DNA from: a plasmid | Length of the DNA: 64,000 nucleotides | Sequence record: NZ_CP096760.1 | Direction: 5' to 3' (one strand) | In this document: positions 19,501 to 34,001 of the stretch, in pieces | Numbering within the stretch: the stretch's first letter is position 1 | Layout of the letters: each line of letters opens with the position of its first letter | Position numbers and translations under genes: made by a program | Notes under the pieces: model-generated | Databases searched by the model: none | What the model saw: the letters and a program-made list of their open reading frames with translations, nothing else | Told to the model about the DNA's origin: nothing

Positions 19501-21858
19501 ATGTTAAACCACGCAATGTCAGTGCAATCTGACTTTTCGATAGGAAAATCATTATTAACGGTAGACAAAATTGTCGAAGCTGCAAAAGGCTTAGGCTATT
19601 CATCGGTCGCAATCGTTGATGACATGTCCTTACATGCATTGGTAGATTTTTCGAACAAAGCCACCAAAGCCAATATCAAGCCGGTGTTTGGTTGTCGTTT
19701 GCGTGTATATGACGATTCTAAATATCGTAAGCCCCCTGCCTCATCTGGTATTGCTGAAAAACGCAACTTGATGTTCTGCCCTAAAGTCTACGTAAAAAGC
19801 GAAAAAGGCATTAAAGGCTTATTCAAACTTCTTACAGACGCAAACTCTAAAGAGCAATATTACTACCACAGCCGTACTGATCTGGATGCTCTATGCAAAT
19901 TGGAAGATGTGGTCGTAACGACTGGTGATATGTACGGTCTGTTTAGTCACCCTGATCACGAAAGAATCTTAAAAGTATTAAAAGCGAGATTTGGTGATGA
20001 TTTATATATTGAATTTAGTCCGATCAATACGCCATTGTTCGACCGCTTAAACTACTTAGGCTATTTGGCGTATGAACGCGAAAAAATTAAAACCGTTGTC
20101 ACTTATCCTTTTAACTATCTTGAGAATGAAGATGCGGACACTTTGGATGTATTGAGCGCTATCGCAACCAATACCCAACTTGATTTGCACTATCGTCCTA
20201 TTCAATACGTAAAAGATTTTGGTTTTAAAGAGCCAAAATTCATTTTAGACCATACAAAAGCTGCTATTCAGCGTATGGCTAAATATGAGCGCGTCAATTC
20301 AGCGGAAGCTTGGAAAGAAGGTCTAAAGAATATTTCTGAGCTGGTGGACAAATGCCAATATATTTTTGAGAAGCAGCCAGTTTCCCTACCTAAGCTAAGC
20401 ACTGACGAATTTAAAACACTATGCGCGAAATGCTTGGAAGGCTGGAAGAAACGCTTTTCTAAAGAGATTCTTGGATATAAGCCAACGAAAGCTGAATTAG
20501 ATACAGTATATAAATCTCGCTTAGGCTATGAGCTTTCAATATTAAAAAAGATGGGCTTTGAGTCCTACTTCCTGCTCGTTGAAGACTTGGTGATGTGGTC
20601 TAAAAACAACGGCGTGATTGTAGGCCCTGGGCGAGGTTCTGTTGGAGGTTCATTAGTCGCTTATCTGCTTGGGATCACGGACGTTGATCCTATACGTTTT
20701 GGATTGATCTTCGAACGTTTCATCAATCCTGAACGTCTTGACTTGCCTGATGCCGATCTGGACTTCGCTTCAAGCGGTCGCTACAAGGTGATTGATTACC
20801 TTGTTGAAAAATATGGTGAAGATTATGTCGCTGGTATCTCGAACTATTCAACACTAGCTTCAGCCTCAGCCCTACGTGATACAGGTCGTATCAGCGGTTT
20901 GAACAACATGCAATTAAGTGCGACCAAGCTTGTGCTTAAAGAACATGGAACGTCACTTGACCTGAATACTTCTGCGGACGCTGTGCCTGAGCTAGACAAG
21001 TTCCGCAATGAACATCCTGTTATCTGGAAGCATGCAACTAAGCTTGCAGGCACAATGAAATCGTTTGGCCAACATGCGGCAGGTATTGTTGTTGCAGGCG
21101 AACCTATCGTTAATCGAGCCGTGCTCGAGACTAGAGGAAAGTCACCAGTCGTCAATTGGGACAAGCGTGTAGTTGAGGATTGGGGCTTGATCAAGATGGA
21201 CTTGCTCGGTCTTGCCACCTTAGATGTATTAAACATTGCATGTGACTATGTAAAAGAGCGACATGGTATTGAATTGGATCTATTAAAGATTCCACTTGAT
21301 GATGAAAAAACCATGCAAGCTTTGGGTCGCGGTGAAACTGTAGGTGTGTTTCAGCTAGAAAGTAGCGGCATGCAACAACTATTGAAGAATATCTCAAACG
21401 GTGGCGCTGTAACCTTTGATGACATTTGTGCTGTTACCGCTTTGTATAGACCGGGCCCTATGGATTCAGGCATGTTGGATGACTATGTGGACTTACGAAA
21501 AGGATTAAAAGAAGTCACCTACGCACATGAAGTCCTTGAACCTGTTCTGTCTGACACTTATGGCGTTGTTGTGTATCAAGAGCAAACGATGGCGCTTGCT
21601 CGTAAGTTGGCAGGGTTCTCAATGGCTGAATCAGATCACCTCAGAAAAGCGATTGGTAAAAAAGACCTTAAGAAAATGGCTGAATTGAAACCGAAGTTTA
21701 TTGATGGTGCTAAAGCGGGGTTTGTAGAGGTTGAACTTGAAGATGGCACAAAGTTAAAAGTGCATCGAATGGAGAAGTTCAAATGCACTGATGGCGTGAT
21801 GAGAACGGTAGAAGAAGCATTCGCTGAAAGCGCTGAAATTCAATACTTTTATTCATAA
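19501..21858 (+). CDS. dnaE: DNA polymerase III alpha (DnaE-type), N-terminal part (PHP plus polymerase core)
   Basis: PHP N-terminus; GLIKMDLLGLATLDV and LRKAIGKK motifs. Homology ends near ...FIDGAKAG, then about 45 non-homologous codons before the stop. Confidence 0.85.
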   Translation: MLNHAMSVQSDFSIGKSLLTVDKIVEAAKGLGYSSVAIVDDMSLHALVDFSNKATKANIKPVFGCRLRVYDDSKYRKPPASSGIAEKRNLMFCPKVYVKSEKGIKGLFKLLTDANSKEQYYYHSRTDLDALCKLEDVVVTTGDMYGLFSHPDHERILKVLKARFGDDLYIEFSPINTPLFDRLNYLGYLAYEREKIKTVVTYPFNYLENEDADTLDVLSAIATNTQLDLHYRPIQYVKDFGFKEPKFILDHTKAAIQRMAKYERVNSAEAWKEGLKNISELVDKCQYIFEKQPVSLPKLSTDEFKTLCAKCLEGWKKRFSKEILGYKPTKAELDTVYKSRLGYELSILKKMGFESYFLLVEDLVMWSKNNGVIVGPGRGSVGGSLVAYLLGITDVDPIRFGLIFERFINPERLDLPDADLDFASSGRYKVIDYLVEKYGEDYVAGISNYSTLASASALRDTGRISGLNNMQLSATKLVLKEHGTSLDLNTSADAVPELDKFRNEHPVIWKHATKLAGTMKSFGQHAAGIVVAGEPIVNRAVLETRGKSPVVNWDKRVVEDWGLIKMDLLGLATLDVLNIACDYVKERHGIELDLLKIPLDDEKTMQALGRGETVGVFQLESSGMQQLLKNISNGGAVTFDDICAVTALYRPGPMDSGMLDDYVDLRKGLKEVTYAHEVLEPVLSDTYGVVVYQEQTMALARKLAGFSMAESDHLRKAIGKKDLKKMAELKPKFIDGAKAGFVEVELEDGTKLKVHRMEKFKCTDGVMRTVEEAFAESAEIQYFYS

Positions 21859-21906
21859 AATCAATCACTTATATTAATCAAATTGAATTAAAAACAGGTT
21901 GTTTAA

Positions 21907-22482
21907 ATGGAAAACTGGAAAGCAATTAAGAACTACGAAGGCTTGTATGAAGTTTCAGACTTAGGGCGTGTGCGGTCGCTTGACCGCATGGTCGCTGTTC
22001 CTCATGGTGGTCAACGTCTAGCAAAAGGGCAAGTGTTAAAACCTAAACAACATCGTGATGGCTACCTGTGTGTATTTTTAAGTAAGAAACAGAAGCAAAT
22101 TTGTCCAATGATTCACAAGTTGGTGCTTGAAGCATTTGTCGGAGAAAGACCAAGTGGAATGCAAGCGTGTCACGGTAATGGAGATAAGACAGACAACAGA
22201 TTGGTTAATTTACGATGGGATACCGTTAAGGCAAATCATAGAGACAAGAAAAAACATGGAACTACAGCTCGCGGAACCAAAGTAAACACAAACAAACTTA
22301 AACATGAGCAGGTAGTGGCAATTCGCGAGAAGCGGAACAATGGTGTGACATTACAAGCGCTCGCGGAAGAATATGGCATTTCTAACAATGCCGTCAGTCA
22401 CATTGTTTTGGGTAAGAACTGGCAATGGGTTGGTGGACCAATCCAAGAAAGAATTTTCAAAGATCGAGGCGCTAACCAATGA
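21907..22482 (+). CDS. HNH homing endonuclease (NUMOD4 plus HNH_3 plus C-terminal HTH), I-HmuI-like
   Basis: WKAIKNYEGLYEVSDLGRVRSL; HKLVLEAFVG...CHGNGDKTDNRLVNLRW. The gene sits between the two dnaE parts. Confidence 0.8.
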   Translation: MENWKAIKNYEGLYEVSDLGRVRSLDRMVAVPHGGQRLAKGQVLKPKQHRDGYLCVFLSKKQKQICPMIHKLVLEAFVGERPSGMQACHGNGDKTDNRLVNLRWDTVKANHRDKKKHGTTARGTKVNTNKLKHEQVVAIREKRNNGVTLQALAEEYGISNNAVSHIVLGKNWQWVGGPIQERIFKDRGANQ

Positions 22483-23744
22483 AAATTAAATCATTAAATA
22501 TTTTGAATGATGGTTTAGAAGAATCAGTTGCCGAGCGTATTTGGGAACAAACAGAAGCAAACGCCAACTACCAATTTAACAAGTCGCATTCTGTGGAGTA
22601 TTCAATCATTTCGGTTTGGTGCGCATATATTCGCGTTCATTACCCTGCTGAATACTTTGCCGCAAGTCTTAGCGTGGTTGATACAGAAGATAAGCTCACT
22701 GGACTTGTGAAAGATGCGCGTGAATGCGGCATTGAGATTCTTCCTCCTGATATTAATTATTCAGCCGATCGTTATAAGATTAAATCCAATACTGAAATCT
22801 TGGCGCCTTTCAATGCAGTCAAAGGTATTTCAGAAACGATTGCCAAAGCGATTGTGAAATTGAGAGAGAAGAATCGGGCTTGGAAAGTCGTTCGCTACAA
22901 GAAGTCGAGAAAGACAGGTGAAACCACACCGGTCTATGGTCCTGATGGTTCAGTTCCACCAAAAAAACGTTTTGATAGCTTTGACGAGTTCGAGAAAGCA
23001 GCATCTCAACCAAACTCGAAAGTGAATAAAACAATCGTTGAAAATCTCAGAGCAATTGGGGCGTTTGCAAGCATTGAACCTAGTGAGCCTTCAGCGAAAG
23101 ACCTCTCACGACGAAAGGACCAAATGAGGCTATTACCAGGATTAATTATTGATTCTGTAAAAGCAGATAGATACACAGATACCTCAGAGCCATTCCTGCG
23201 AGCTTCGTTGGTCGAGCATATGCGCGATTGCAAGCAATGTAACGGTTGCGACCTTGCTGGACAGGTTCATCCTGATATTCGTTTGGGTAAAAAGATACGA
23301 TTTATGGTTGTTTCGGACTGTCCAACTTGGGAGGAAGAAAAGAAAGGAAAACTACTCGAAGGCGAATCTGCTCAATATGTCAAAGCTGCAATTAAAGAAA
23401 ATGAATTAGCTGTTGCGGACGGTTATTACACAACGCTCGTCAAAGCCAAAAAACAAGACAAGTTCTTAACGACAGGTCAAATCAATGGATGTAGTCCTCA
23501 TTTGGCCAAAGAAATCGAGCTTCTTAAACCGCCAGTCATTGTTGCCCTTGGAAGTCAGTCAATTCGCTACTTATTACCTGACGTTAAGGTATCCCCTAGC
23601 GATCTCGTAGGCATGACTTTCTACAACCCTAAATTAGACGCAACCATTGTTTGCGGACTTAACCCACAGCAATGCCATTTTGACCCTACAAAGCTGGAAG
23701 GACTTGTAAAAGCATTCAAGGAGGTTGCTGACATTATTTCTTAA
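22479..23744 (+). CDS. dnaE: DnaE-type polymerase, C-terminal part, fused to a UDG-like domain
   Basis: YQFNKSHSVEYSIISVWCAYIRVHYPAEYF matches the E. coli DnaE segment [28 protein letters not shown]. The start overlaps the HNH stop (ATGA). Confidence 0.8.
   Translation: MKIKSLNILNDGLEESVAERIWEQTEANANYQFNKSHSVEYSIISVWCAYIRVHYPAEYFAASLSVVDTEDKLTGLVKDARECGIEILPPDINYSADRYKIKSNTEILAPFNAVKGISETIAKAIVKLREKNRAWKVVRYKKSRKTGETTPVYGPDGSVPPKKRFDSFDEFEKAASQPNSKVNKTIVENLRAIGAFASIEPSEPSAKDLSRRKDQMRLLPGLIIDSVKADRYTDTSEPFLRASLVEHMRDCKQCNGCDLAGQVHPDIRLGKKIRFMVVSDCPTWEEEKKGKLLEGESAQYVKAAIKENELAVADGYYTTLVKAKKQDKFLTTGQINGCSPHLAKEIELLKPPVIVALGSQSIRYLLPDVKVSPSDLVGMTFYNPKLDATIVCGLNPQQCHFDPTKLEGLVKAFKEVADIIS
23196..23744 (+). 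other. Degenerate family-4 UDG-like domain at the polymerase C-terminus
   Basis: CKQCNGCDL (Fe-S-like Cys motif); MVVSDCPTWEEE sits where UDG4 has GEAPGxxE; HFDPTKL near the end. Confidence 0.45.
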
Positions 23745-24958: not shown

Positions 24959-25006
24959 ATGCACTCAAAATTTTTCTAGTTCTAAGTAATTAGGCATTTT
25001 GAGTGC
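24959..25006 (+). promoter_or_regulatory. 12-bp perfect stem-loop in the SSB gene leader
   Basis: TGCACTCAAAAT, 24-nt loop, ATTTTGAGTGCA, immediately after the -10 box. Confidence 0.45.
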
Positions 25007-25064
25007 AAAGCATGAACTTCTAGCAATTGAGCATTTAAACCTTTTGACAGTAGGACATTAAGCA

Positions 25065-25925
25065 ATGAACGTAGCAAAACTTTTAGCAAACGCAAAGAAG
25101 AACAAAGACGCCCTCAAAAGCCGTGAATCTACCATCAAACCAAAGCCGGGTAAAAACAATTACGTTTTACTGGGAGACTGGAACCAAGAACGTAACGAAG
25201 AGTTCTACAAACCCTTCTCACAGCACTTCATTAAGGATTATTCAAAAGTCACGGACGGAAAGCCAGAAACGACCGTTCATGTATGTATGTCTAAAACTTT
25301 TGATGAAGACTGTCCTATCTGCGATGCCATTGCAGAAGCAGGTCGTTTAATTGGTGCCAATGCAACTGACGAACAGATCAAAACATTGGAAGACGCGAAA
25401 GCATCAACTGTGTATTTGCTCAATGTTCTTGAAGTTGATGATTCAGGCAAGCATGACGGTCAGCCTAAAGCTCTTCAAGTCGGCAAATTAACACTTAGCT
25501 CAATTCTGGACATGATGGACGATTGGGGTGAAGCAATTTTTGTGGATCATCAAGTTGTTACCATCAACCGTGAAGGTACAGGTCTTAATACGAAATACAA
25601 CGTATTACCGGGTTCCAAAAAGGTTCACGTTGATCCAGAAGTTTTCAAACGTATGATTGACCTTGACGATTATGTCAAACAAGCAAACGAAGAGAGAAAA
25701 CGCCTTGCGTTGGGTGCAATTAGACGCGCTGCTGGACTTTATGCCCCTGCAGAGCCGACACACGTCCCTGCTGAACGAACCATTGGCACATCATCAGCCT
25801 TGGCTAGTGATGTGACAGATGTTTCATACAAAGATGTCACCACCTCATCTTTGGATGTAACTGAAATTGATTTGGGTGATGAATTGGAAGCGCTCTTAGA
25901 TGATGCGCACCAAGAAGCAAGCTAA
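25065..25925 (+). CDS. gp32-like zinc-binding ssDNA-binding protein
   Basis: H...C...CPICDA zinc motif, as in T4 gp32; acidic C-terminal tail. Confidence 0.7.
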   Translation: MNVAKLLANAKKNKDALKSRESTIKPKPGKNNYVLLGDWNQERNEEFYKPFSQHFIKDYSKVTDGKPETTVHVCMSKTFDEDCPICDAIAEAGRLIGANATDEQIKTLEDAKASTVYLLNVLEVDDSGKHDGQPKALQVGKLTLSSILDMMDDWGEAIFVDHQVVTINREGTGLNTKYNVLPGSKKVHVDPEVFKRMIDLDDYVKQANEERKRLALGAIRRAAGLYAPAEPTHVPAERTIGTSSALASDVTDVSYKDVTTSSLDVTEIDLGDELEALLDDAHQEAS

Positions 25926-25939
25926 TCCTAATCAATGAC

Positions 25940-27025
25940 TTGAAAGAAAGCCGCTATAGCTGCGGCTTTCTTTTTGGGGAGATTAACGTGGAAAATCTAA
26001 TTATTCTCGTTGACGCCAATTCAATCGGTTACGCAGCGCAGCACGCTATCAAGCTCTATTCAGGCTCAATGCAGACTCAGGCGGTGTTTAGCTTTATCAA
26101 GACAATGCGCGAGTTAAGACAACGCTATCCGCATGCAGGCATGGTTGTTTTATGGGACGGTCGTGCTGAATGGCGTTTTGAGCGTGAACCTTCATACAAG
26201 AGCAATCGCAAATCTGATCCAAGAATGCAACAAGAGCATGACGCTTACAAAGCGCAGTGCCCTTTTATTAAACGTGCTTTAAAAGCGTTGGGCATTAAGC
26301 AAATGACTAGCGCGATACATGAAGCAGATGATCTTGCTGGCATTCTTGTACAACGTTTCGCAAGCGATCCCAACAATCGTATTTTATTGATTACCGGTGA
26401 CCGTGACTGGTTACAGCTAGTTAAGCCAAACGTTTCGTGGCGTGACCCTCGTGATGAAAGCCGTTTCATTCATTGGGCTAATTTTTATGAGAAAACAGGC
26501 TTCAAATCACCTGTGGCATTTCTTCAAGGCAAAGCATTACAAGGCGATTCTTCGGACTGCATCAGCGGTGTTGGGGGAATTGGTGAAGCGACCGCAATCA
26601 AGATTCTTGCTGAATACGGTTCAGTAAATGAGTTCTGGAAACTATGCGACGCTGGATTAAAGCCACCTTCAAAAGCTTTGCGATCACTTTATGCAGGCAA
26701 TTCCCCATACACAAAAGAGGAATGGGAAAGCCAATTCATCTATGTGGAAGACAGCTCACTAACGGATGAGCAAAACGAAAAGGCGCGAAATAAAGCGCTG
26801 AAAGCACACATGGATGCATATGTAGGTCAAGGGCGCAGACTGTTCTTGAGAAACCTAGAACTTATGCAATTGCTACGTCCTGCCCCTCTTCAAAAAGAAC
26901 ACCTCGAAATCATCCAAGGCGAAATCAATCCGGATGACTTTACCGAGTTATGCGGCGAGTTAGCTTTTGGCTCGATTCTCAAAAACGTACCGAATTTCAT
27001 GAAACCTTTTTATAACGGACAATGA
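25940..27025 (+). CDS. 5'-3' exonuclease / flap endonuclease (phage RNase H-like)
   Basis: LIILVDANSIGY, ITGDRDWLQLV and the helix-hairpin-helix region. The true start may be downstream of 25940. Confidence 0.8.
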   Translation: MKESRYSCGFLFGEINVENLIILVDANSIGYAAQHAIKLYSGSMQTQAVFSFIKTMRELRQRYPHAGMVVLWDGRAEWRFEREPSYKSNRKSDPRMQQEHDAYKAQCPFIKRALKALGIKQMTSAIHEADDLAGILVQRFASDPNNRILLITGDRDWLQLVKPNVSWRDPRDESRFIHWANFYEKTGFKSPVAFLQGKALQGDSSDCISGVGGIGEATAIKILAEYGSVNEFWKLCDAGLKPPSKALRSLYAGNSPYTKEEWESQFIYVEDSSLTDEQNEKARNKALKAHMDAYVGQGRRLFLRNLELMQLLRPAPLQKEHLEIIQGEINPDDFTELCGELAFGSILKNVPNFMKPFYNGQ

Positions 27026-29226
27026 TTATGGAACCAAATTTATCTGCATTAGCTGACGACTTAGAAAAATTAATTGGCGACAACGAAGAAACGCAAACAG
27101 TGACTAACTGGCTTGATACTGGCGATCCAGAGTTAAACTTTGCGATTTCTGGACGCTATGACGGCGGTATTCCTTATGGTCGCATTGTTGAAATGTATGG
27201 TCCACCGTCATCAGGTAAAACCGCAGAGGCGACTGACTTAATGATTCGCGCCCAAGAAGCTGGCGGTATTGCCATGTTCTTTGACTGGGAACGTTCCTTT
27301 GATATTAACCTTGCGAAGAATCTAGGCTTAAAGACGGAGCGTCCATTCTGGATTTATAAAAAGCCTGAAACTTGGGAAGAAGGCAATGTTTTAGCAATGC
27401 GTGCAGTTGAGTTGATCCGCAATTCAGCAACAATTCCAGACGATGCGCCAATCATTTGCGTGTTTGACTCGGTTGCATCGGCAATTCCTCAATCTGTTTA
27501 CTATGACAATAAGGGCAAAAAGCGTGAAATCGACACATTCAATATGAGCGATAACACCGCTCTGGCTCGTGCTTCCAGTACGTCATTGAAAGTAATTGCT
27601 CAGACGGCTGAAAAGTACAATGCAACGTTCTTATATTTGAACCAACAGCGTACGAAAATTGGAGTGATGTTCGGTGATCCAACCTGTCTGAGAGCGGAAG
27701 TTCAGGTGCCATTCGTCGATGGTACGTCCGCAACCATGAAGCAAATTGTTGATGGCAAAATCAGCAAGGAAGTATGGTCTTGGAATGAAGTATCGGGTCA
27801 GCTTGAGCCAAAACGCATCATCGGTTGGCACAACAATGGCTCAATCAAAGGAACTGACAAAGAGTGGTATCACATCCGCGCTGTATGTCCTGAAACGCGC
27901 AATGGCATGGTTGCGGTATCGGGCACAAATGATCACAAAGTCCAAGTGAAAGACAAAGGTTGGATTAATTTTAGCGACGTTCGTGTAGGCGACTATGTGA
28001 TTACTCGCACCAAACGCACCTTTGCAGGAACAGCGCTTGAGTTCTTAAAGGGGTTGATCGGTTTTGACAGTCACATGGCGCGCGTGTCGTCGCAACGTCA
28101 GACAGCCGCACTGATCATTCAGGACAATGAAAACCCTGAATACGCACAGTGGAAGGTTGATCTGCTGTCACGCCACCTAAACTTCGTCAAGCGCGAAATC
28201 ACTATTAGCAAGGGCAATAAAGGGCATCGCTACGAGTCCTGTTACACCCATGAGTTGATGAAGTTTTACGACTTGTGCCGCTGTCCTCACACACTGTTCA
28301 AAGATGGCTGGACACCTATGCAATTAGCCATTGCAGTGATGGACGATGGTAATTACAAGGAGAGCAGCAAGACACTGAACCTGTCCTTTAAGCGACTGCG
28401 TGGCTGTGAGGATGAATTAGACGCAATCGGTCAATCGCTGTATCAATCATTTGGCTTAACTTATGATATTCGTTACGGTCAGGGTCGTATTGACTTTGAT
28501 GTAAAAGGTACTGCCAAGATCGCTGAATTGATCGCTCAGTACGTGCCAGACTGTATGCAGTACAAGTTACCGATTGAGTATCGCGGACGCTATGTAGCGC
28601 TCGAATTAGACGCTCCTGTTGATGAATCAGTTGTGCATTATGCAGAAGTGACAGAAATGCGCTTGGGAAGTAAAAATAAAGGCTCGGTAATGTATGACAT
28701 TACCGTTGAGGATAATCACAACTTCTTGGCAGGCAATACGCACAACGGTTTCTTGGTGCATAACTGCACACCAGGCGGTTCTTCTTTTGAATATTACGCA
28801 TCAGTACGAATTGCTCTTGGCCGTACCAAGTTAATGGAAACGGTCAACGGTAAAAAGCAGTTTGTGGGGCAGGATATTGCAACTAAAATTGTGAAAACCA
28901 AACTCACAAAACCGTTCCAAGAAACCACTATGCGTATGTGGTTTGACAAGAATGGCGTAGCGTTCTTTGACCGCCACTACAACTTAGTTGAGTTCTTAAA
29001 AGCTAAAGGCATTTTGAAACAGTCGGGCGCTTACATTGAATGGACTGACGGTAAGAAATATCACCTGAAATCGCTTTGCGACAAACTGAAAGCAGATCCA
29101 ACCGGATTGCAGCAGCTCCGCGCATTAATCCCTAAGATTTCACCAAGCGCTGATGACATTGAGGTCACACCGTTGATGAGCAATGAAGATGAAATGGAAG
29201 CTTTGTACAGTGACGATGCGTGTTAG
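27022..29226 (+). CDS. recA: RecA-family recombinase interrupted by an intein
   Basis: Walker A GPPSSGKT. Exteins join to KIGVMFGDPT/CTPGGSSFEYYASVRI, matching the E. coli RecA segment [26 protein letters not shown]. Confidence 0.85.
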   Translation: MIMEPNLSALADDLEKLIGDNEETQTVTNWLDTGDPELNFAISGRYDGGIPYGRIVEMYGPPSSGKTAEATDLMIRAQEAGGIAMFFDWERSFDINLAKNLGLKTERPFWIYKKPETWEEGNVLAMRAVELIRNSATIPDDAPIICVFDSVASAIPQSVYYDNKGKKREIDTFNMSDNTALARASSTSLKVIAQTAEKYNATFLYLNQQRTKIGVMFGDPTCLRAEVQVPFVDGTSATMKQIVDGKISKEVWSWNEVSGQLEPKRIIGWHNNGSIKGTDKEWYHIRAVCPETRNGMVAVSGTNDHKVQVKDKGWINFSDVRVGDYVITRTKRTFAGTALEFLKGLIGFDSHMARVSSQRQTAALIIQDNENPEYAQWKVDLLSRHLNFVKREITISKGNKGHRYESCYTHELMKFYDLCRCPHTLFKDGWTPMQLAIAVMDDGNYKESSKTLNLSFKRLRGCEDELDAIGQSLYQSFGLTYDIRYGQGRIDFDVKGTAKIAELIAQYVPDCMQYKLPIEYRGRYVALELDAPVDESVVHYAEVTEMRLGSKNKGSVMYDITVEDNHNFLAGNTHNGFLVHNCTPGGSSFEYYASVRIALGRTKLMETVNGKKQFVGQDIATKIVKTKLTKPFQETTMRMWFDKNGVAFFDRHYNLVEFLKAKGILKQSGAYIEWTDGKKYHLKSLCDKLKADPTGLQQLRALIPKISPSADDIEVTPLMSNEDEMEALYSDDAC
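27685..28764 (+). other. Intein (360 aa) with LAGLIDADG-type homing endonuclease motifs
   Basis: Starts with Cys (CLRAEV), ends ...VHN followed by +1 Cys. Internal LKGLIGFDSH and LAIAVMDDGN blocks. Confidence 0.8.
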
Positions 29227-29313
29227 TAATTGCCGCAATTAACTGATTAACAGCTAACAAATACGCCTCTATACTTTTGGTTCAACCTATAAGTATAGAG
29301 GCAGTTAGCCATC

Positions 29314-29673
29314 ATGAAACATGAATATGCATTAGATTTCGCACCACCTTTTGTGGGATTAGATAACGAACTTTATAACACCTTCAGATTGGGTACTTCA
29401 TGGTCCAAACGGTTGGCCAAAGGCGATGAAGTTTATATCCAATCATCAAAAGATAAACTGATATTCAGCAAAGCATGTGTAGAGGATGTGATTGTCGGTC
29501 AAATTGGAGAGCTGATGCTACTCCACGCACACAACAATCATAACGAGTTAGGGCAAGACGACGGACGCAGCGCAGAGCGTTTATACAAGACCATGCAAAA
29601 GATGTATGGACCGCAAGTCCTCAACTCACCACGTAAAAAAGCGACTGTTATTTATTTGAGGAAAATTGAATGA
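29314..29673 (+). CDS. hypothetical protein
   Basis: 119-aa ORF. Confidence 0.5.
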   Translation: MKHEYALDFAPPFVGLDNELYNTFRLGTSWSKRLAKGDEVYIQSSKDKLIFSKACVEDVIVGQIGELMLLHAHNNHNELGQDDGRSAERLYKTMQKMYGPQVLNSPRKKATVIYLRKIE

Positions 29674-30131
29674 GTTCCAAAAATATATTTAAACTAAATT
29701 CACTCCTTCCGGGTAAATACCAAGAGAACCCTCTTTTTAAAGATAAAACCATTGAGCAAATTCTGGAGGAAAACCACCCTACCGCTATCATTGAATTAAT
29801 ACGTTTTCGAGATAATACAATCAAGAATAGAATTAAATGTGGTTTAGCTACAGATCAAGCTGTAAATGCATTTCATAAAGAAGTGCATATGTGTCTTGAT
29901 CTGTACATCTATACAAATTACGACTCCTTAAAGAGATATTACATTCGATTCAAAAAAGACCGCTTAAAACTCGAATTACATGAATATAACGCTAAAAAGA
30001 AACAAGAAGATCGTGAAAAGAAAATGGCTGTAGAGATTGAACGTAGATTGGCTCAAGAAAAGGAACTGCAAGAACAGCTTCGTATTCAGGAACGACAAAA
30101 ATTCTATGGGGATGTGCTGGGGTCTTGGTAA
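29670..30131 (+). CDS. hypothetical protein with C-terminal tail QKFYGDVLGSW
   Basis: Tail is near-identical in protein and DNA to that of the 5644..6198 gene. TAATG overlap with the next gene. Confidence 0.55.
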   Translation: MSSKNIFKLNSLLPGKYQENPLFKDKTIEQILEENHPTAIIELIRFRDNTIKNRIKCGLATDQAVNAFHKEVHMCLDLYIYTNYDSLKRYYIRFKKDRLKLELHEYNAKKKQEDREKKMAVEIERRLAQEKELQEQLRIQERQKFYGDVLGSW

Positions 30132-30511
30132 TGGTCATTGAACGTCAACCGCATACAGTGAATGGCAAAAGAATTGGTACGTTTTACAGCGTCGATGGCA
30201 AATACGTGATGTATTTGCTTTTGGCGCGTGGTGAGAAGACGAAACTGCTGGATATAAAAAACAGTTCTTGGCGAATGCCCTCTATGGCTCTAATGGAAGC
30301 AAAGCGCAGAGGCTGTAAATATATTGGCGTTACACATCGGATGGGCAAGAAGTTTTTATATTACATAGCCAGATCCGCAGACTGGTACGGTGAACATTCC
30401 GCTCCTTCTAGCTTTAGAGGGGAATTTCAACGGACGCTTCGCACTGAAGCCTTCCTTTTCAATTCAACCCACACTACAAAATATATTGCAAAATCAATCA
30501 AAATTCGCTAA
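30131..30511 (+). CDS. hypothetical protein
   Basis: Start set to ATG 30131, overlapping the upstream stop. Confidence 0.5.
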   Translation: MVIERQPHTVNGKRIGTFYSVDGKYVMYLLLARGEKTKLLDIKNSSWRMPSMALMEAKRRGCKYIGVTHRMGKKFLYYIARSADWYGEHSAPSSFRGEFQRTLRTEAFLFNSTHTTKYIAKSIKIR

Positions 30512-30523
30512 AAATCCTATTGA

Positions 30524-30550
30524 TTATTAGTAAGCCCTTACTTATTTATC
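30524..30550 (+). promoter_or_regulatory. Palindromic promoter-like element (variant)
   Basis: ATTATTAGTAAGCCCTTACTTATTTATC. Confidence 0.35.
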
Positions 30551-30598
30551 TACAATTGACGTACAGTATCTTTAAGTATCTACTTCTTTGGAGCTACT

Positions 30599-30820
30599 AT
30601 GCGTCAATTGTCTAAAAACAAGGTTATTAATAAATTAGCGAACGAACTCATAGATCAATACGGCTGGACATTAAGACCAAAGCGTAATAGTCCCCATAAC
30701 GTAATAGTAGATCCGAATACACATTACTCATACCCAATACCACACTCCCCTTCATGCTGGAGAGCGGAGAAAAACTGGGTGGCTGGCATTCGTAAAATCA
30801 TGCGTGGGGTTCGTCCGTAA
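30599..30820 (+). CDS. hypothetical small protein
   Basis: 73-aa ORF. Confidence 0.45.
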   Translation: MRQLSKNKVINKLANELIDQYGWTLRPKRNSPHNVIVDPNTHYSYPIPHSPSCWRAEKNWVAGIRKIMRGVRP

Positions 30821-30846
30821 TTATTAATAAGCGCTTATTATTAAAG
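30820..30846 (+). promoter_or_regulatory. Palindromic element (variant)
   Basis: ATTATTAATAAGCGCTTATTATTAAAG; only about 10 bp upstream of the sbcD start. Confidence 0.3.
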
Positions 30847-30853
30847 GTATCTT

Positions 30854-31969
30854 ATGAGCAATTTTCCATACGCTGTCATATCCGACACACATAACCACAA
30901 CTGGTCCGCATTTAGCGAAACAACACCAGAAAATGTAAACAGTCGCCTTCAAATCATTCTGAATGAAACGATGCGAGCGGCAGAAGAAGTCAAGGCAATG
31001 GGTGGAACGCACCTGTATCACACTGGAGATTTATTCCATGTGCGCGGTTCAATTAGTCCTTCAGTATTAAATCCCACTATTGCCACTTACAAGGTAATTC
31101 AACAACTGCTGGGAATCAAAGTTCGCATTCTTGCAGGCAACCACGATTTAGAGTTTCGCGAAGCCAACCGTAATGGTTCGGCTGTTACAGCTTTAGAAGG
31201 CATTGGCTGCGAAATTATCAACGAGACGTCTTTGTTTTTAGATGAACGCGTTGCCATGATTCCGTGGTTCCAAGATGTCAACGAACTAAAAAGTGAAATT
31301 GAAAGAGTAAAACTTCAAATCAACTCTATGCCTTCTCGTTCACCATTACGAACAATTGAAACCGTAAGCGATTGGACCTTAATGATTCACGCACCTGTAG
31401 ATGGTGTAATTGCTGGCATTCCGTCGCATGGTTTAAGTGCCACATGGTTAGGTTCACAAGGCTTTAAACGAGTATTTGCAGGTCACTACCATCATCACAA
31501 AGATTTTGGCAACGGCGTTTACTCAGTTGGGGCGCTTACGCACAACAGTTGGTCGGATGTTAATTCCGATGCCGGTTTTCTACTGGTGAACGATTCAAAG
31601 GTTACTTGGCGATGCTCTCATGCTCCGCAATTTGTCGAGATTGATGGAAGCATGAGCGAAGTCGATATGGCACTCAAGGCTTCTGGTAACTACGTTCGCT
31701 GTACGGTCAATTCAAGCGCAAAGCAATCTGACATTGAAACAATCCGTCAATTTCTCATGGATAACAATGCAAAAGGCGTTGTGATTCTGTCCCAAAAGAA
31801 AATCGTAGAAGTTGAACGCGAGGAAGTGAGTTCGATCAAGGCAGGTGCTTCTCTCGAAGTGTCCATCAATGATTTCGTGAACAAAATGGGTATTGGGAGC
31901 AAGGCAGACGACCTTTCCAAATTATGTCTCTCAATCTTAGAAAAGGCACGCATGGAGGTCGTTGAATAA
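30854..31969 (+). CDS. sbcD: SbcD/Mre11-like nuclease (gp47-like)
   Basis: Calcineurin-like motifs AVISDTHNHNW, HTGDLFH, LAGNHDLE. Confidence 0.8.
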   Translation: MSNFPYAVISDTHNHNWSAFSETTPENVNSRLQIILNETMRAAEEVKAMGGTHLYHTGDLFHVRGSISPSVLNPTIATYKVIQQLLGIKVRILAGNHDLEFREANRNGSAVTALEGIGCEIINETSLFLDERVAMIPWFQDVNELKSEIERVKLQINSMPSRSPLRTIETVSDWTLMIHAPVDGVIAGIPSHGLSATWLGSQGFKRVFAGHYHHHKDFGNGVYSVGALTHNSWSDVNSDAGFLLVNDSKVTWRCSHAPQFVEIDGSMSEVDMALKASGNYVRCTVNSSAKQSDIETIRQFLMDNNAKGVVILSQKKIVEVEREEVSSIKAGASLEVSINDFVNKMGIGSKADDLSKLCLSILEKARMEVVE

Positions 31970-33909
31970 TGAAAATTCTAAAAGCCACTTTCCAGAATTT
32001 CTTAACCCTTTCAGAAGCTTGTTTGGAGCTTGATGATCGCGGTTTATTGTTAATTACAGGCAAGAATGATGACGATACATCAGCAAATTCAAATGGCGCT
32101 GGTAAATCATCACTGGTCGACGGTATCTGCTGGGCGTTATACGGTACGACGGCGCGTGATGTTACAGGGGATGACGTTGTAAATGAAACAGCCAAAAAAG
32201 ACTGCTGTGTATCTTTACAGATCGAAGATGATGGCAAGCTTTACAACATTACTCGTTATCGCAAAAGCAAAAAATTCAAGAATGCATTAATTGTCTCAAG
32301 CGTTGATAAAGCTGGCGTTGAAACCAACCTGACCAAAGGGACCGACAAGGAAACTCAGCTTCTCGTGAATGCCATTGTCGGATGCTCAGCAGACGTATTC
32401 ACATCAGCCGTCTATGCAGGGCAAGAACGAATGCCTGACCTTCCATCGATGACAGATAAGACCTTAAAAATGTTAATCGAGGAAGCTGCTGGGATTGAAG
32501 TGCTAGAAGCAGCTCATGCCATTGCTCGAAAAAACTTGAACGAAGCCAAGCTTGAGCATAGCGAAGCGCTGCATAAGGTTAGTTTGATTGACGCTCACAT
32601 TGCCAATGTTGAGGCATCTCTGCTTACGGTCGAGAAACAGTCTTTAGATTTTGAAATTACCAAAAAAGACCGAGCCAAAGAGCATCTTAAACTTTGCTTA
32701 CCGCATCTTGCGACCATTCGTGAATGTGAGGCTCAGCTCGACCTAGAATCCCCTGCCAAAGAAATTGAACAAATCAACGAGCAAATTGAACAGTTAAAGG
32801 AAATCCAGAAACAGCACACAGCCAAAAGCCTTGAGCTTCGCAAAATTTACGTGGACTTCAATGCACGCGTCCATTTGGCCAAAGTCGAAAAACAGAACAT
32901 CGAAAAGTTAAAAGCTGAAATTGCTAACTCTCAATCACTAGTGGGAACGCCGTGCAATGAATGTGGCAAGCAATATTGTGCAGAAGATTTGCATGACGCC
33001 ATTCAGGCCCGCGAAACACTGGTTAAAAGCAAAATTAAACAAAACAATGAAATCATCCTGAAAGCTAGGGAGATTGATGAACAAAGGAAAAATCTTGAGG
33101 CTGAGATTTCAGAGCTTGAGGATCAGTTAAAGCAGTTACCGACTCTTCAAGCGAAACTGGAAAAACTAAAACAGGATGCACAAGCCCAGTCATTAGCGGA
33201 AGAACGCAAGAAAATCGCAGAAGAGGCTGTGGCGCGCATCAAGGCGGAATCTCGCGAGAAGCTTAATGAAGTCAGTCCATTTGTCGCTCAGTTAAAAGAC
33301 TTGAATGACAAAAAGGTTAAATACCTTAAAGCCAGAGAAGACAAGCAGAAAGCCGCAGATTCAGCACTTGAGAAAGTTGAGCTTGCAAATATGGCGGTGA
33401 ATATTTTCGGTCCTGCTGGTGTACGCGCTCACATTCTCGATACCGTCACTCCATTCCTGAATAGCCGCACATCCGAATACTTGGGCGCATTGTCTGACGG
33501 CAACATTCATGCAACTTGGTCAACGCTATCTGCTACGGCCAAAGGTGAGCTGAAGGAGAAATTCAGCATCACGGTTGCAAATGATTCAGGCGGTTCTTCA
33601 TTCAAGAAATTATCAGGCGGAGAAAAACGTAAGGTTCGTCTGGCTACAGCTCTTGCCCTTCAAGATTTAGTGATGAGCCGTGCAACCAAGCCAATCAATC
33701 TATGGATTGCCGATGAAATTGATTATGCGCTCGATGAAAGTGGATTAGAACGACTTATGGTCGTGCTGGACAGAAAGGCTCGTGAGCGCGGAACAGTGCT
33801 GATCATTTCTCATCAGAGCGGGTTAAAGGACTGGGTAGATTTGGTCATCGAAGTGACCAAGAAAGAAGGTACTTCAACGGTTTCAGGAGACAACCTCAAG
33901 GCAGCATAA
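31969..33909 (+). CDS. sbcC: SbcC/Rad50-like ATPase (gp46-like)
   Basis: Walker A GKNDDDTSANSNGAGKSS, central coiled coil with CxxC hook (CNECGKQYC), signature LSGGEKRKVRLA, Walker B LWIADEID. Confidence 0.85.
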   Translation: MKILKATFQNFLTLSEACLELDDRGLLLITGKNDDDTSANSNGAGKSSLVDGICWALYGTTARDVTGDDVVNETAKKDCCVSLQIEDDGKLYNITRYRKSKKFKNALIVSSVDKAGVETNLTKGTDKETQLLVNAIVGCSADVFTSAVYAGQERMPDLPSMTDKTLKMLIEEAAGIEVLEAAHAIARKNLNEAKLEHSEALHKVSLIDAHIANVEASLLTVEKQSLDFEITKKDRAKEHLKLCLPHLATIRECEAQLDLESPAKEIEQINEQIEQLKEIQKQHTAKSLELRKIYVDFNARVHLAKVEKQNIEKLKAEIANSQSLVGTPCNECGKQYCAEDLHDAIQARETLVKSKIKQNNEIILKAREIDEQRKNLEAEISELEDQLKQLPTLQAKLEKLKQDAQAQSLAEERKKIAEEAVARIKAESREKLNEVSPFVAQLKDLNDKKVKYLKAREDKQKAADSALEKVELANMAVNIFGPAGVRAHILDTVTPFLNSRTSEYLGALSDGNIHATWSTLSATAKGELKEKFSITVANDSGGSSFKKLSGGEKRKVRLATALALQDLVMSRATKPINLWIADEIDYALDESGLERLMVVLDRKARERGTVLIISHQSGLKDWVDLVIEVTKKEGTSTVSGDNLKAA

Positions 33910-34001
33910 GGCATAAAGCGCTAGAAGCTACAAATACGTAGTTTTTAGCGCCTTTTCATAGTCAAACGTACATTTGAGTCATTTAATTCAAGAGGCGCAA
34001 C

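Follow-up and report, generated by a model that had tools for sequence, protein, structure and literature searches.

An insert in a phage-plasmid recombinase gene

This report concerns an insert in a RecA-family recombinase gene on an Acinetobacter plasmid. The DNA analysed is a stretch of 64,000 nucleotides from record NZ_CP096760.1; it is called the window below, and all coordinates refer to it. The insert occupies 27685-28764 on the plus strand. It has 360 codons without a stop, reads CLRAEVQVPFVDG...NTHNGFLVHN in translation, and is followed directly on its 3' side by a Cys codon at 28765-28767. It lies within a single open reading frame (ORF), 27022..29226, of 734 aa. RefSeq starts the protein at 27028, which gives 732 aa beginning MEPNLS. 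The original prediction, made from the sequence alone, was a 360-aa intein with Cys1, a C-terminal His-Asn, a +1 Cys, a Hint block and two LAGLIDADG motifs. Its coordinates, end residues and quoted motifs are exact on translation, and the motif positions are conserved across the family. The gene is laid out as follows.

27028..29226 (+), precursor gene for a RecA/UvsX-like recombinase with an intein, in the ORF list; matched by PF00154 (4.2e-36) and phrog_97 (8e-98); RefSeq 'recombinase RecA', WP_000433629.1; an alternative in-frame ATG at 27022 gives the 734 aa
27028..27684 (+), N-extein, 219/221 aa, with Walker A GPPSSGKT, ending ...NQQRTKIGVMFGDPT within the L2 loop (translation; RecA profile positions 27-201)
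27672..27684 (+), cluster of junction-proximal synonymous differences from an intein-free allele (4 of 14 N-extein mismatches with L006); may be a co-conversion tract, and forms the left half of the site that the endonuclease presumably cuts
27685..28764 (+), intein, class 1, 360 aa, Cys1...His359-Asn360 (PF14890, TIGR01443, PF03161; AlphaFold2 model; drop in identity to L002 at both boundaries)
27685..28020 (+), N-terminal splicing (Hint) subdomain, residues 1-112, with block A Cys1 and block B T81-x-x-H84 (27925-27936) (conservation; beta-rich model; Foldseek; kept in mini-inteins)
28021..28617 (+), nested LAGLIDADG homing-endonuclease domain, residues about 113-311 (PF03161 at residues 121-267; Foldseek to I-SceI and I-WcaI; exactly the region gone from mini-inteins)
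28045-28074 (+), LAGLIDADG motif 1, LKGLIGFDSH, with D128 (family alignment)
28324-28353 (+), LAGLIDADG motif 2, LAIAVMDDGN, with D220/D221 (family alignment)
28618..28764 (+), C-terminal splicing subdomain, residues 312-360, with block F Asp338 (YDITVEDNHNF) and block G His359-Asn360 (28759-28764) (TIGR01443 at residues 337-360; conservation; phmmer to 2jmz)
28765..28767 (+), +1 extein nucleophile, Cys (TGC) (codon comparison of 4 intein-bearing and 3 intein-free alleles)
28765..29226 (+), C-extein, 153 aa plus stop, CTPGGSSFEYYASVRI..., the rest of L2 and the C-terminal RecA core (translation; the RecA profile runs on across the junction after intein removal)

The computed mass of the spliced extein is 41.8 kDa from the 27022 start (the ligated product is predicted at about 41.6-41.8 kDa), and that of the intein is 41.0 kDa; the original prediction, of about 41 and 40 kDa, comes near to these values. 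The precursor is predicted at about 83 kDa, and the predicted ligated junction of the spliced protein reads ...IGVMFGDPTCTPGGSSFEYYASVR.

The insert as an intein with a nested endonuclease

The effect of the insert on the RecA domain is a simple place to begin. The PF00154 match to the unspliced ORF comes in two pieces. When the insert is excised in silico there is one contiguous match (residues 18-281, profile positions 24-259 of 262, E=2.3e-42). This bears out the claim that the insert sits in the L2-loop region of a RecA-family recombinase and that its removal restores collinearity.

Profile searches, which had been proposed as a check, then identify the insert itself. PF14890 (Intein_splicing) matches residues 10-360 with E=1.2e-9 (38.6 bits against a cut-off of 35.8). 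TIGR01443, the intein C-terminal splicing region, matches residues 337-360 with E=2.9e-8. Since the PF14890 match spans residues 10-360, the two Hint halves are separated by a large insert of their own. PF03161 (LAGLIDADG_2) matches residues 121-267 (E=6.9e-6, 26.5 bits against a cut-off of 25), and PHROGs gives a weak match to a LAGLIDADG homing endonuclease family. Judged at the level of sequence, these profile matches exclude chance as the source of the intein signal.

Residue conservation was scored in an alignment of 121 full-length relatives of the intein. Cys1, H84, D338 and N360 are each conserved in 121/121, H359 in 119/121 and the block B residue T81 in 115/121. Block B reads T81-N-D-H84 and lies inside 'GTNDH'. 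The two endonuclease aspartates are nearly as constant, with D128 of LAGLIDADG motif 1 in 118/121 and D221 of motif 2 in 115/121. The window intein holds every catalytic splicing residue and both of these aspartates. Its SxKR and MQYKLP conserved motifs are intact as well.

A sequence search of the intein against PDB chains gives marginal matches only (2jmz at E=0.009, I-SceI at E of about 0.6-0.8), so a structure model and Foldseek were used. The AlphaFold2 model, built on an 8-sequence alignment, is confident, with a mean predicted local distance difference test score of 88.8 and a predicted template modelling (TM) score of 0.75. Its ends are beta-rich (residues 1-111 and 314-359). Its centre is alpha/beta, with helices at 115-126 and 211-221 and hairpins after each. 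For the middle domain, the top Foldseek matches in the PDB are I-SceI (1r7m; E=1e-9, target-normalised TM 0.62, 23% identity) and I-WcaI. For the ends, the splicing domain of the Mtu RecA intein comes first (2in0, 3igd and others; root mean square deviation 1.2-3.5 A over about 108 columns). Further matches for the ends are the Ssp DnaB, DnaE and Npu inteins, with probability 1.00. At the sequence level, phmmer aligns the C-terminal subdomain with the C-terminal blocks of M. jannaschii MJ0781 (2jmz).

The N- and C-terminal parts thus form a Hint fold, as both the model and Foldseek show. The features of a class 1 intein are all there: an in-frame insert, a block A nucleophile, TxxH in block B, the block F and G residues and a +1 Cys. 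The middle domain has two helices that each end in an acidic residue, in the pseudo-dimeric alpha-beta-beta-alpha-beta-beta-alpha fold of I-SceI-like LAGLIDADG enzymes. We are confident that the insert is a canonical class 1 intein with a nested two-motif I-SceI-type LAGLIDADG homing endonuclease, at RecA site 'd' in the recombinase of an AB phage-plasmid. The original prediction of an intein is therefore backed by profiles, by the structure model and by the intein-free alleles described below.

A group I intron or a free-standing endonuclease gene was also considered. Both are ruled out by the unbroken reading frame and by the Hint blocks on either side of the endonuclease.

The insertion site

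The intein sites of RadA/RecA proteins have been tabulated as sites a to e (Topilina et al. 2015, NAR, PMC4513877, Table 1). Site 'd (216-370)' in that table is a 155-aa mini-intein in A. baumannii ABNIH1 (F9IG70) and IS-143 (K1ED71). These proteins are listed as Proteobacteria RecA, and a phage-plasmid origin is unmentioned (PMC4513877). One of our matches, the 498-aa A. baumannii 'recombinase' P0006, has a 155-aa mini-intein at exactly residues 216-370. In a protein alignment its junction GDPR/C...HN/CTPGG coincides with GDPT/C...HN/CTPGG of the window (a slash marks an intein junction here and below). Since the P0006 coordinates match the published table and the junctions align, the window insertion is at site d. 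The window intein is related to the published site-d mini-intein but is full-length and bears an endonuclease. In the numbering of E. coli RecA this site lies between E207 and T208, in loop L2.

The host element and its recombinase

The 6 kb around the gene are 100% identical to A. baumannii/Acinetobacter sp. plasmids NZ_CP038645.1, NZ_CP033864.1 and NZ_CP139838.1. They are at least 99.5% identical to about 30 further plasmids of about 104-117 kb, which come from people, pigs, chickens, pangolins, soil and wastewater. AB phage-plasmids form two subgroups of about 110 kb with no known phage counterpart, and recA is among their persistent genes (PMC7969092). The element that carries the intein belongs to this AB group of Acinetobacter. 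A megablast search of the phage collection with the gene gave no match. Among phage recombinases, the nearest to the extein are those of Pseudomonas phage nickie and relatives, at only about 46% identity; for the recombinases of SSU5-type elements the figure is 44-45%. The suggestion of an intein in a phage RecA was right about the RecA family, but the host is a phage-plasmid and not a classical phage.

The host protein has RecA core features, Walker A GPPSSGKT and the L2-region motif NQQRTKIGVMFG...GG, and phrog_97, which it matches at 8e-98, is a UvsX-like recombinase family. It scores 134 bits against the 325-bit cut-off of the TIGR02012 equivalog, which marks it as a paralogue of phage type, distinct from the cellular RecA. 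The exact 732-aa precursor is found on at least 1000 contigs, where it is named 'MULTISPECIES: recombinase RecA [Acinetobacter]'. The label 'intein C-terminal splicing region domain protein' is attached only to a 223-aa fragment.

Empty, occupied and shortened alleles

The intein is polymorphic, both in its presence and in its sequence. A search with the spliced extein finds intein-free proteins, among them P0159 (372 aa, 99% identical), P0160 (88%) and P0161 (76%). Intein-free alleles lie on syntenic contigs of up to 113 kb. They are joined at the predicted junction: P0159 reads ...KIGVMFGDPT/TTPGGSSFEYY..., and DPT/TTPGG is found in all. The +1 codon is Thr (ACT/ACC) in the 3 intein-free alleles compared and Cys (TGC) in all 4 intein-bearing ones. 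By this codon comparison Thr is the ancestral +1 state, and the Cys would arrive with the intein.

One can imagine the empty alleles as precise deletions of the intein. This is ruled out, as they have the ancestral Thr codon and not TGC.

The intein-free allele L006, whose empty site reads AAAATTGGAGTGATGTTTGGCGATCCGACGACTACACCAGGCGGTTCTTCTTTTGAATAT, is about 97% identical to the window at the nucleotide level, and the two elements are otherwise about 97% identical too. All three bases of the +1 codon differ between them. Of 14 mismatches in the N-extein, four are concentrated in the 13 nt that adjoin the junction (27672, 27675, 27681 and 27684; binomial P=1.3e-4), and about 100 nt on each side of this patch and the codon are identical. 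The intein-free alleles L006, L008 and L009 all have TTT GGC in the patch. Since the outgroup empty alleles share this with L006, the window state is derived at 2 of the 4 positions. The cluster looks like a short co-conversion tract.

A second allele is found in plasmid NZ_CP046537.1 of strain XL380 (L002). Its intein has 71% nucleotide and 70% protein identity to that of the window, whereas its exteins have 95.6% (N) and 96.3% (C) nucleotide identity. Identity falls and rises again exactly at the two splice junctions. At the protein level the N-extein of the window is identical to that of P0001/L002, which carries the different intein allele. Such diverged inteins in near-identical exteins mean that the intein alleles are far older than the split of the host genes, and this implies independent acquisition or replacement. 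A third full-length allele (P0002/P0011) is 54-55% identical and belongs to the other extein lineage.

Shortened alleles complete the set. Mini-inteins of 155-165 aa are carried by 27 PLSDB plasmids of about 105-114 kb and by several metagenomic proteins. Those of P0003, P0005 and P0006 are 85-92% identical to the splicing domain of P0002, and those of P0007 and P0008 are 63-67% identical. All are without residues of about 109-311, and the deletion endpoints differ. The window intein itself is carried at 99.8% identity or more by 33 PLSDB plasmids from varied sources, and 34 of 34 close PLSDB relatives are already occupied. From the alleles compared, the empty, invaded and degenerate states are the stages expected of a homing cycle, and the intein is apparently mobile now or was recently.

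Predicted splicing and homing, and the alternatives

We argue for the following route. A precursor of about 83 kDa would be translated and would undergo an N-S acyl shift at Cys1, helped by T81 and H84 of block B. Cys+1 would then attack the thioester (trans-thioesterification). Cyclisation of Asn360, helped by His359 and Asp338, would free the 41-kDa intein, and an S-N shift would leave an active recombinase of about 41.6 kDa with a Thr-to-Cys scar in the L2 loop. When two phage-plasmids share one cell, the freed intein or the precursor would use D128 and D221 to cut the intein-free allele at its presumed target ...ATGTTTGGCGATCCGACG/ACTACACCAGGCGGT... Repair from the intein-bearing copy would transfer the intein together with the Cys+1 codon and a few bases of flanking sequence. 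The endonuclease would decay when all sites had become occupied, and the 155-165-aa mini-inteins of the sister phage-plasmid lineage may be the outcome.

It must be admitted that several points weigh against this. Splicing and cleavage are predictions from conserved residues and established intein chemistry, and the exact target is presumed. The synonymous cluster at the junction could have other causes, such as target-site resistance mutations in the empty allele, although the TTT GGC that the outgroup empty alleles share with L006 speaks against this. Comparison of the window and L002 inteins does reveal purifying selection, with a ratio of nonsynonymous to synonymous change (dN/dS) of about 0.09 in the endonuclease domain and 0.15 in the splicing domain, but dS is saturated (pS 0.62-0.72), so the ratios are approximate and reflect long-term and not present-day constraint. 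Little can be learned from the 33 near-identical copies about whether the endonuclease is active at present. Because all 34 close relatives are occupied, the endonuclease may have few targets and could be newly inactive by an undetectable change.

In one alternative scenario the intein still splices but its endonuclease is now inactive. It would then be a fixed, immobile passenger, kept because imprecise loss would destroy the recombinase. The full occupancy of the close relatives would mean little current selection for cleavage, the sister lineage has already lost the endonuclease, and the copies are near-clonal at 99.8% identity or more. We nevertheless consider this unlikely. The window intein retains both catalytic aspartates and undamaged SxKR and MQYKLP motifs, and the dN/dS of the endonuclease is below that of the splicing domain. 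Empty alleles of 99% identity are present in the population, and the two deeply diverged alleles in near-identical exteins imply at least one recent transfer.

Another scenario has the intein co-opted as a conditional splicing switch. A Cys1-Cys+1 disulfide, or sensitivity to metal or oxidants, would hold the recombinase back until, for example, lytic induction. Cys1 and Cys+1 are indeed both present, the latter in place of the ancestral Thr, but Cys+1 is simply the commonest intein nucleophile. The insertion is in the functional L2 loop, a region of the monomer-monomer interface according to the literature, and an unspliced precursor would thus be expected to lack activity. Other inteins, of the RadA/RecA family and of DnaB, have been shown to splice conditionally (PMC4513877, PMC6195587), and by this analogy a switch is plausible. 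The intein is also kept in essentially all sampled AB phage-plasmids, even as a mini-intein, but the difficulty of precise deletion explains this retention equally well. Intein-free alleles in elements that are otherwise about 97% identical at the nucleotide level indicate that the intein is not required. A switch seems quite improbable to us. It would be harder still to defend a degenerate Hint insertion that does not splice and inactivates the recombinase in the manner of a pseudogene. Nothing specific speaks for it, although some PLSDB records say 'hypothetical protein' under the match, which may reflect gaps in the annotation of those records or pseudogene calls. Against it, the ORF runs for 2.2 kb without a break, all splicing residues are conserved, the splicing domain has the low dN/dS given above, the extein protein sequences are conserved across alleles, and the exact sequence is on at least 1000 contigs. 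We give this possibility hardly any weight. The reading we prefer is still a splicing intein with a homing endonuclease.

One intein family at several bonds of the L2 loop

A phmmer search with the intein against 1.84 billion representative proteins gave 1152 relatives at E<=1e-3; 117 of these have an E of 1e-30 or lower. Among the 150 best, nearly every one is a RecA-family protein of about 700 aa with a full-length homologous intein in L2. Junctions were mapped among the top phmmer matches (P0011-P0158) with window 27685-28764 as the reference. The sites below follow E. coli RecA numbering.

204/205 (site b), MFG/SPETTTGG, about 90 representatives
207/208 (site d), GDPT/CTPGG, about 24 representatives, plus 4 variants with L2 one residue shorter
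201/202, KPGV/CYGDPTTTPGG, 4 representatives
206/207, MFGDN/STTPGG, 2-3 representatives
210/211, GDPTYEP/CGE, 1 representative

Homologous full-length inteins thus occupy at least 5 different peptide bonds in a loop of ten codons. At 201/202, 206/207 and 210/211, and at the standard b and d sites, the spliced loop has the standard length with no indels; the exception is the four shorter site-d variants. Given this standard length, the site shifts are genuine and do not come from slips in the alignment. A rough neighbour-joining tree, without support values, places the site-d inteins in at least 3 separate clusters, and in it the window clade is interleaved with the 201/202 inteins.

One explanation is that a single large, largely phage- or plasmid-borne intein family with an I-SceI-type endonuclease colonised at least five bonds of the L2 loop, its members repeatedly hopping a few codons within one target region. 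We put this forward tentatively, as somewhat less than an even bet. If it is true, the landing point would be set by where a Cys, Ser or Thr nucleophile fits and would not be locked to one allelic site. The move seen in the window would have brought its own +1 Cys and so the Thr-to-Cys scar in the DNA-binding loop. In the papers searched on this intein, on Acinetobacter phage-plasmid inteins and on homologous inteins at neighbouring sites, we found only the 2015 site table, and the site-hopping pattern in L2 was not found. A 2025 actinobacteriophage preprint describes intein spread within local phage populations and switching between genes. A scan of genome contigs with the intein alignment found three loci only, all from metagenome-assembled genomes, and this says nothing on taxonomic spread.

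Some members of the family have other surroundings. The jumbo phages fHe-Yen9-02 (Yersinia; L004:625-4047) and pEa_SNUABM_17 (Erwinia; L005:583-4050) have UvsX-like genes of about 1170-1190 aa with two inteins each. The first is a site-b homologue of the window intein with 35% identity. The second insert is apparently unrelated. It lies 14 residues downstream, right after ...ALKFY; its first residue is Cys, its last three are SHN, and the next residue is Ser. A second intein is also present in P0028, at ...SPEYEP/C. P0146 and P0152 are full-length relatives of the intein, about 30% identical, in a host that is not RecA, with flanks ...IKAPFKL/C...HN/CDGTDGTPDLRNKF. Going by these flanks, the data suggest that the family switched host protein at least once.

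Neighbouring genes

The recombinase belongs to a conserved recombination and replication module, described here over window 25065-34000 with the annotation of L001/L006. A gp32-like single-stranded DNA-binding protein (25065..25925) and a 5'-3' exonuclease (25940..27025) precede it. Four small ORFs, all of unknown function, follow it, and after them come the genes of an Mre11-like metallophosphoesterase (30854..31969) and of an SMC/Rad50-like ATPase. In the otherwise near-identical plasmid NZ_CP062920.1, an IS4-like ISAba33 transposase lies inside the region homologous to window 25000-31000.

The gene for the DNA polymerase III alpha subunit (DnaE), at window 19501-23744, is in two fragments, 19501..21858 and 22479..23744. 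Between them is a free-standing NUMOD4 plus HNH_3 endonuclease ORF (21907..22482). The split is seamless at residue 737/738 of the intact homologue. The N fragment has an extra tail of 48 aa and the C fragment an extra head of 7 aa; the C fragment also has a UDG-superfamily domain. L002 (XL380) and L006 have about 270 nt in place of a segment of about 1060 nt in the window (21515-22575), and dnaE of L002 is annotated as one intact gene of 1151 aa. A split intein or 'fractured gene' is ruled out for DnaE, as the extra tails are only 48 and 7 residues and have no intein blocks. The genome had been proposed as a hotspot for selfish elements. This is partly borne out by the NUMOD4/HNH ORF that interrupts dnaE here and that two relatives lack.

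Significance

The insertion site (2015), RecA inteins in general and the phage-plasmid group are all known. What is new is a full-length, endonuclease-bearing member at site d. RecA-family inteins have been known since 1992, and the intein call itself is routine. RefSeq labels the protein only 'recombinase RecA'. The AB phage-plasmids of A. baumannii are widespread and are clinically relevant carriers of resistance genes, yet the intein in their recombinase is unlabelled in the annotation. The series of natural states is unusually complete. In closely related elements that can be cultured, the site is empty, occupied (three diverged alleles) or filled by an intein that has lost its endonuclease, which makes a natural system for tests of homing between phage-plasmids and of the endonuclease target. 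If site-hopping within L2 is true, it bears on how inteins reach new insertion sites.

Comparison with known systems

The closest known system is the site-d mini-intein of A. baumannii. It shares the AB phage-plasmid recombinase host, the insertion point and the Cys1/Cys+1 chemistry, and the mini-intein proteins align to the first and last thirds of the window intein with 52-66% identity. The published intein has 155 aa and no endonuclease, whereas that of the window has 360 aa and an intact LAGLIDADG domain. The window also belongs to the other AB subgroup, and the exteins are about 54-58% identical.

The site-'b' inteins of RecA (M. leprae type, G204/S205) are homologous over the full length, endonuclease included, with 34-39% identity and E of about 1e-52 to 1e-59. 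The comparison was made with P0004 and the first inteins of the jumbo-phage UvsX genes as their representatives. The architecture and the L2 loop are the same. However, these inteins sit three codons upstream, after MFG and before SPE, and their +1 residue is Ser and not Cys.

PI-MtuI, the intein at site 'a' of M. tuberculosis RecA (residues 252-691), likewise has Cys1 and Cys+1, and its splicing domain is the best solved structural match for the Hint part (2in0, 3igd). Its site is about 45 residues downstream, its endonuclease domain is different, and there is no significant sequence match (the NF007072 match covers the extein only). For the nested endonuclease, I-SceI and I-WcaI (PF03161) match best in both structure and sequence, with 22-23% identity. 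They are monomeric two-motif enzymes, and 'MDDG' and the catalytic Asp align. Unlike the window domain they are free-standing, encoded by group I introns of yeast mitochondria and directed at unrelated target sites.

Last are the P-loop (site c2) inteins of SSU5-type phage-plasmids in E. coli, Enterobacter and Klebsiella. Here too the recombinase of a phage-plasmid of about 110 kb has a LAGLIDADG intein, and the exteins are about 40-45% identical. The SSU5-type inteins are in Walker A, at residues 65-486 (PMC4513877), and were compared with the window by setting and extein. SSU5-type recombinases in PLSDB (H171-H181, from E. coli, Klebsiella and Enterobacter; most 110-115 kb, range 70-179 kb) match the window extein from residue 64 on only. 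The annotation under these matches is 'LAGLIDADG family homing endonuclease' or 'intein-containing recombinase RecA', consistent with the published site c2 intein. Taken together, the SSU5-type and AB cases mean that intein-bearing recombinases recur across phage-plasmid groups.

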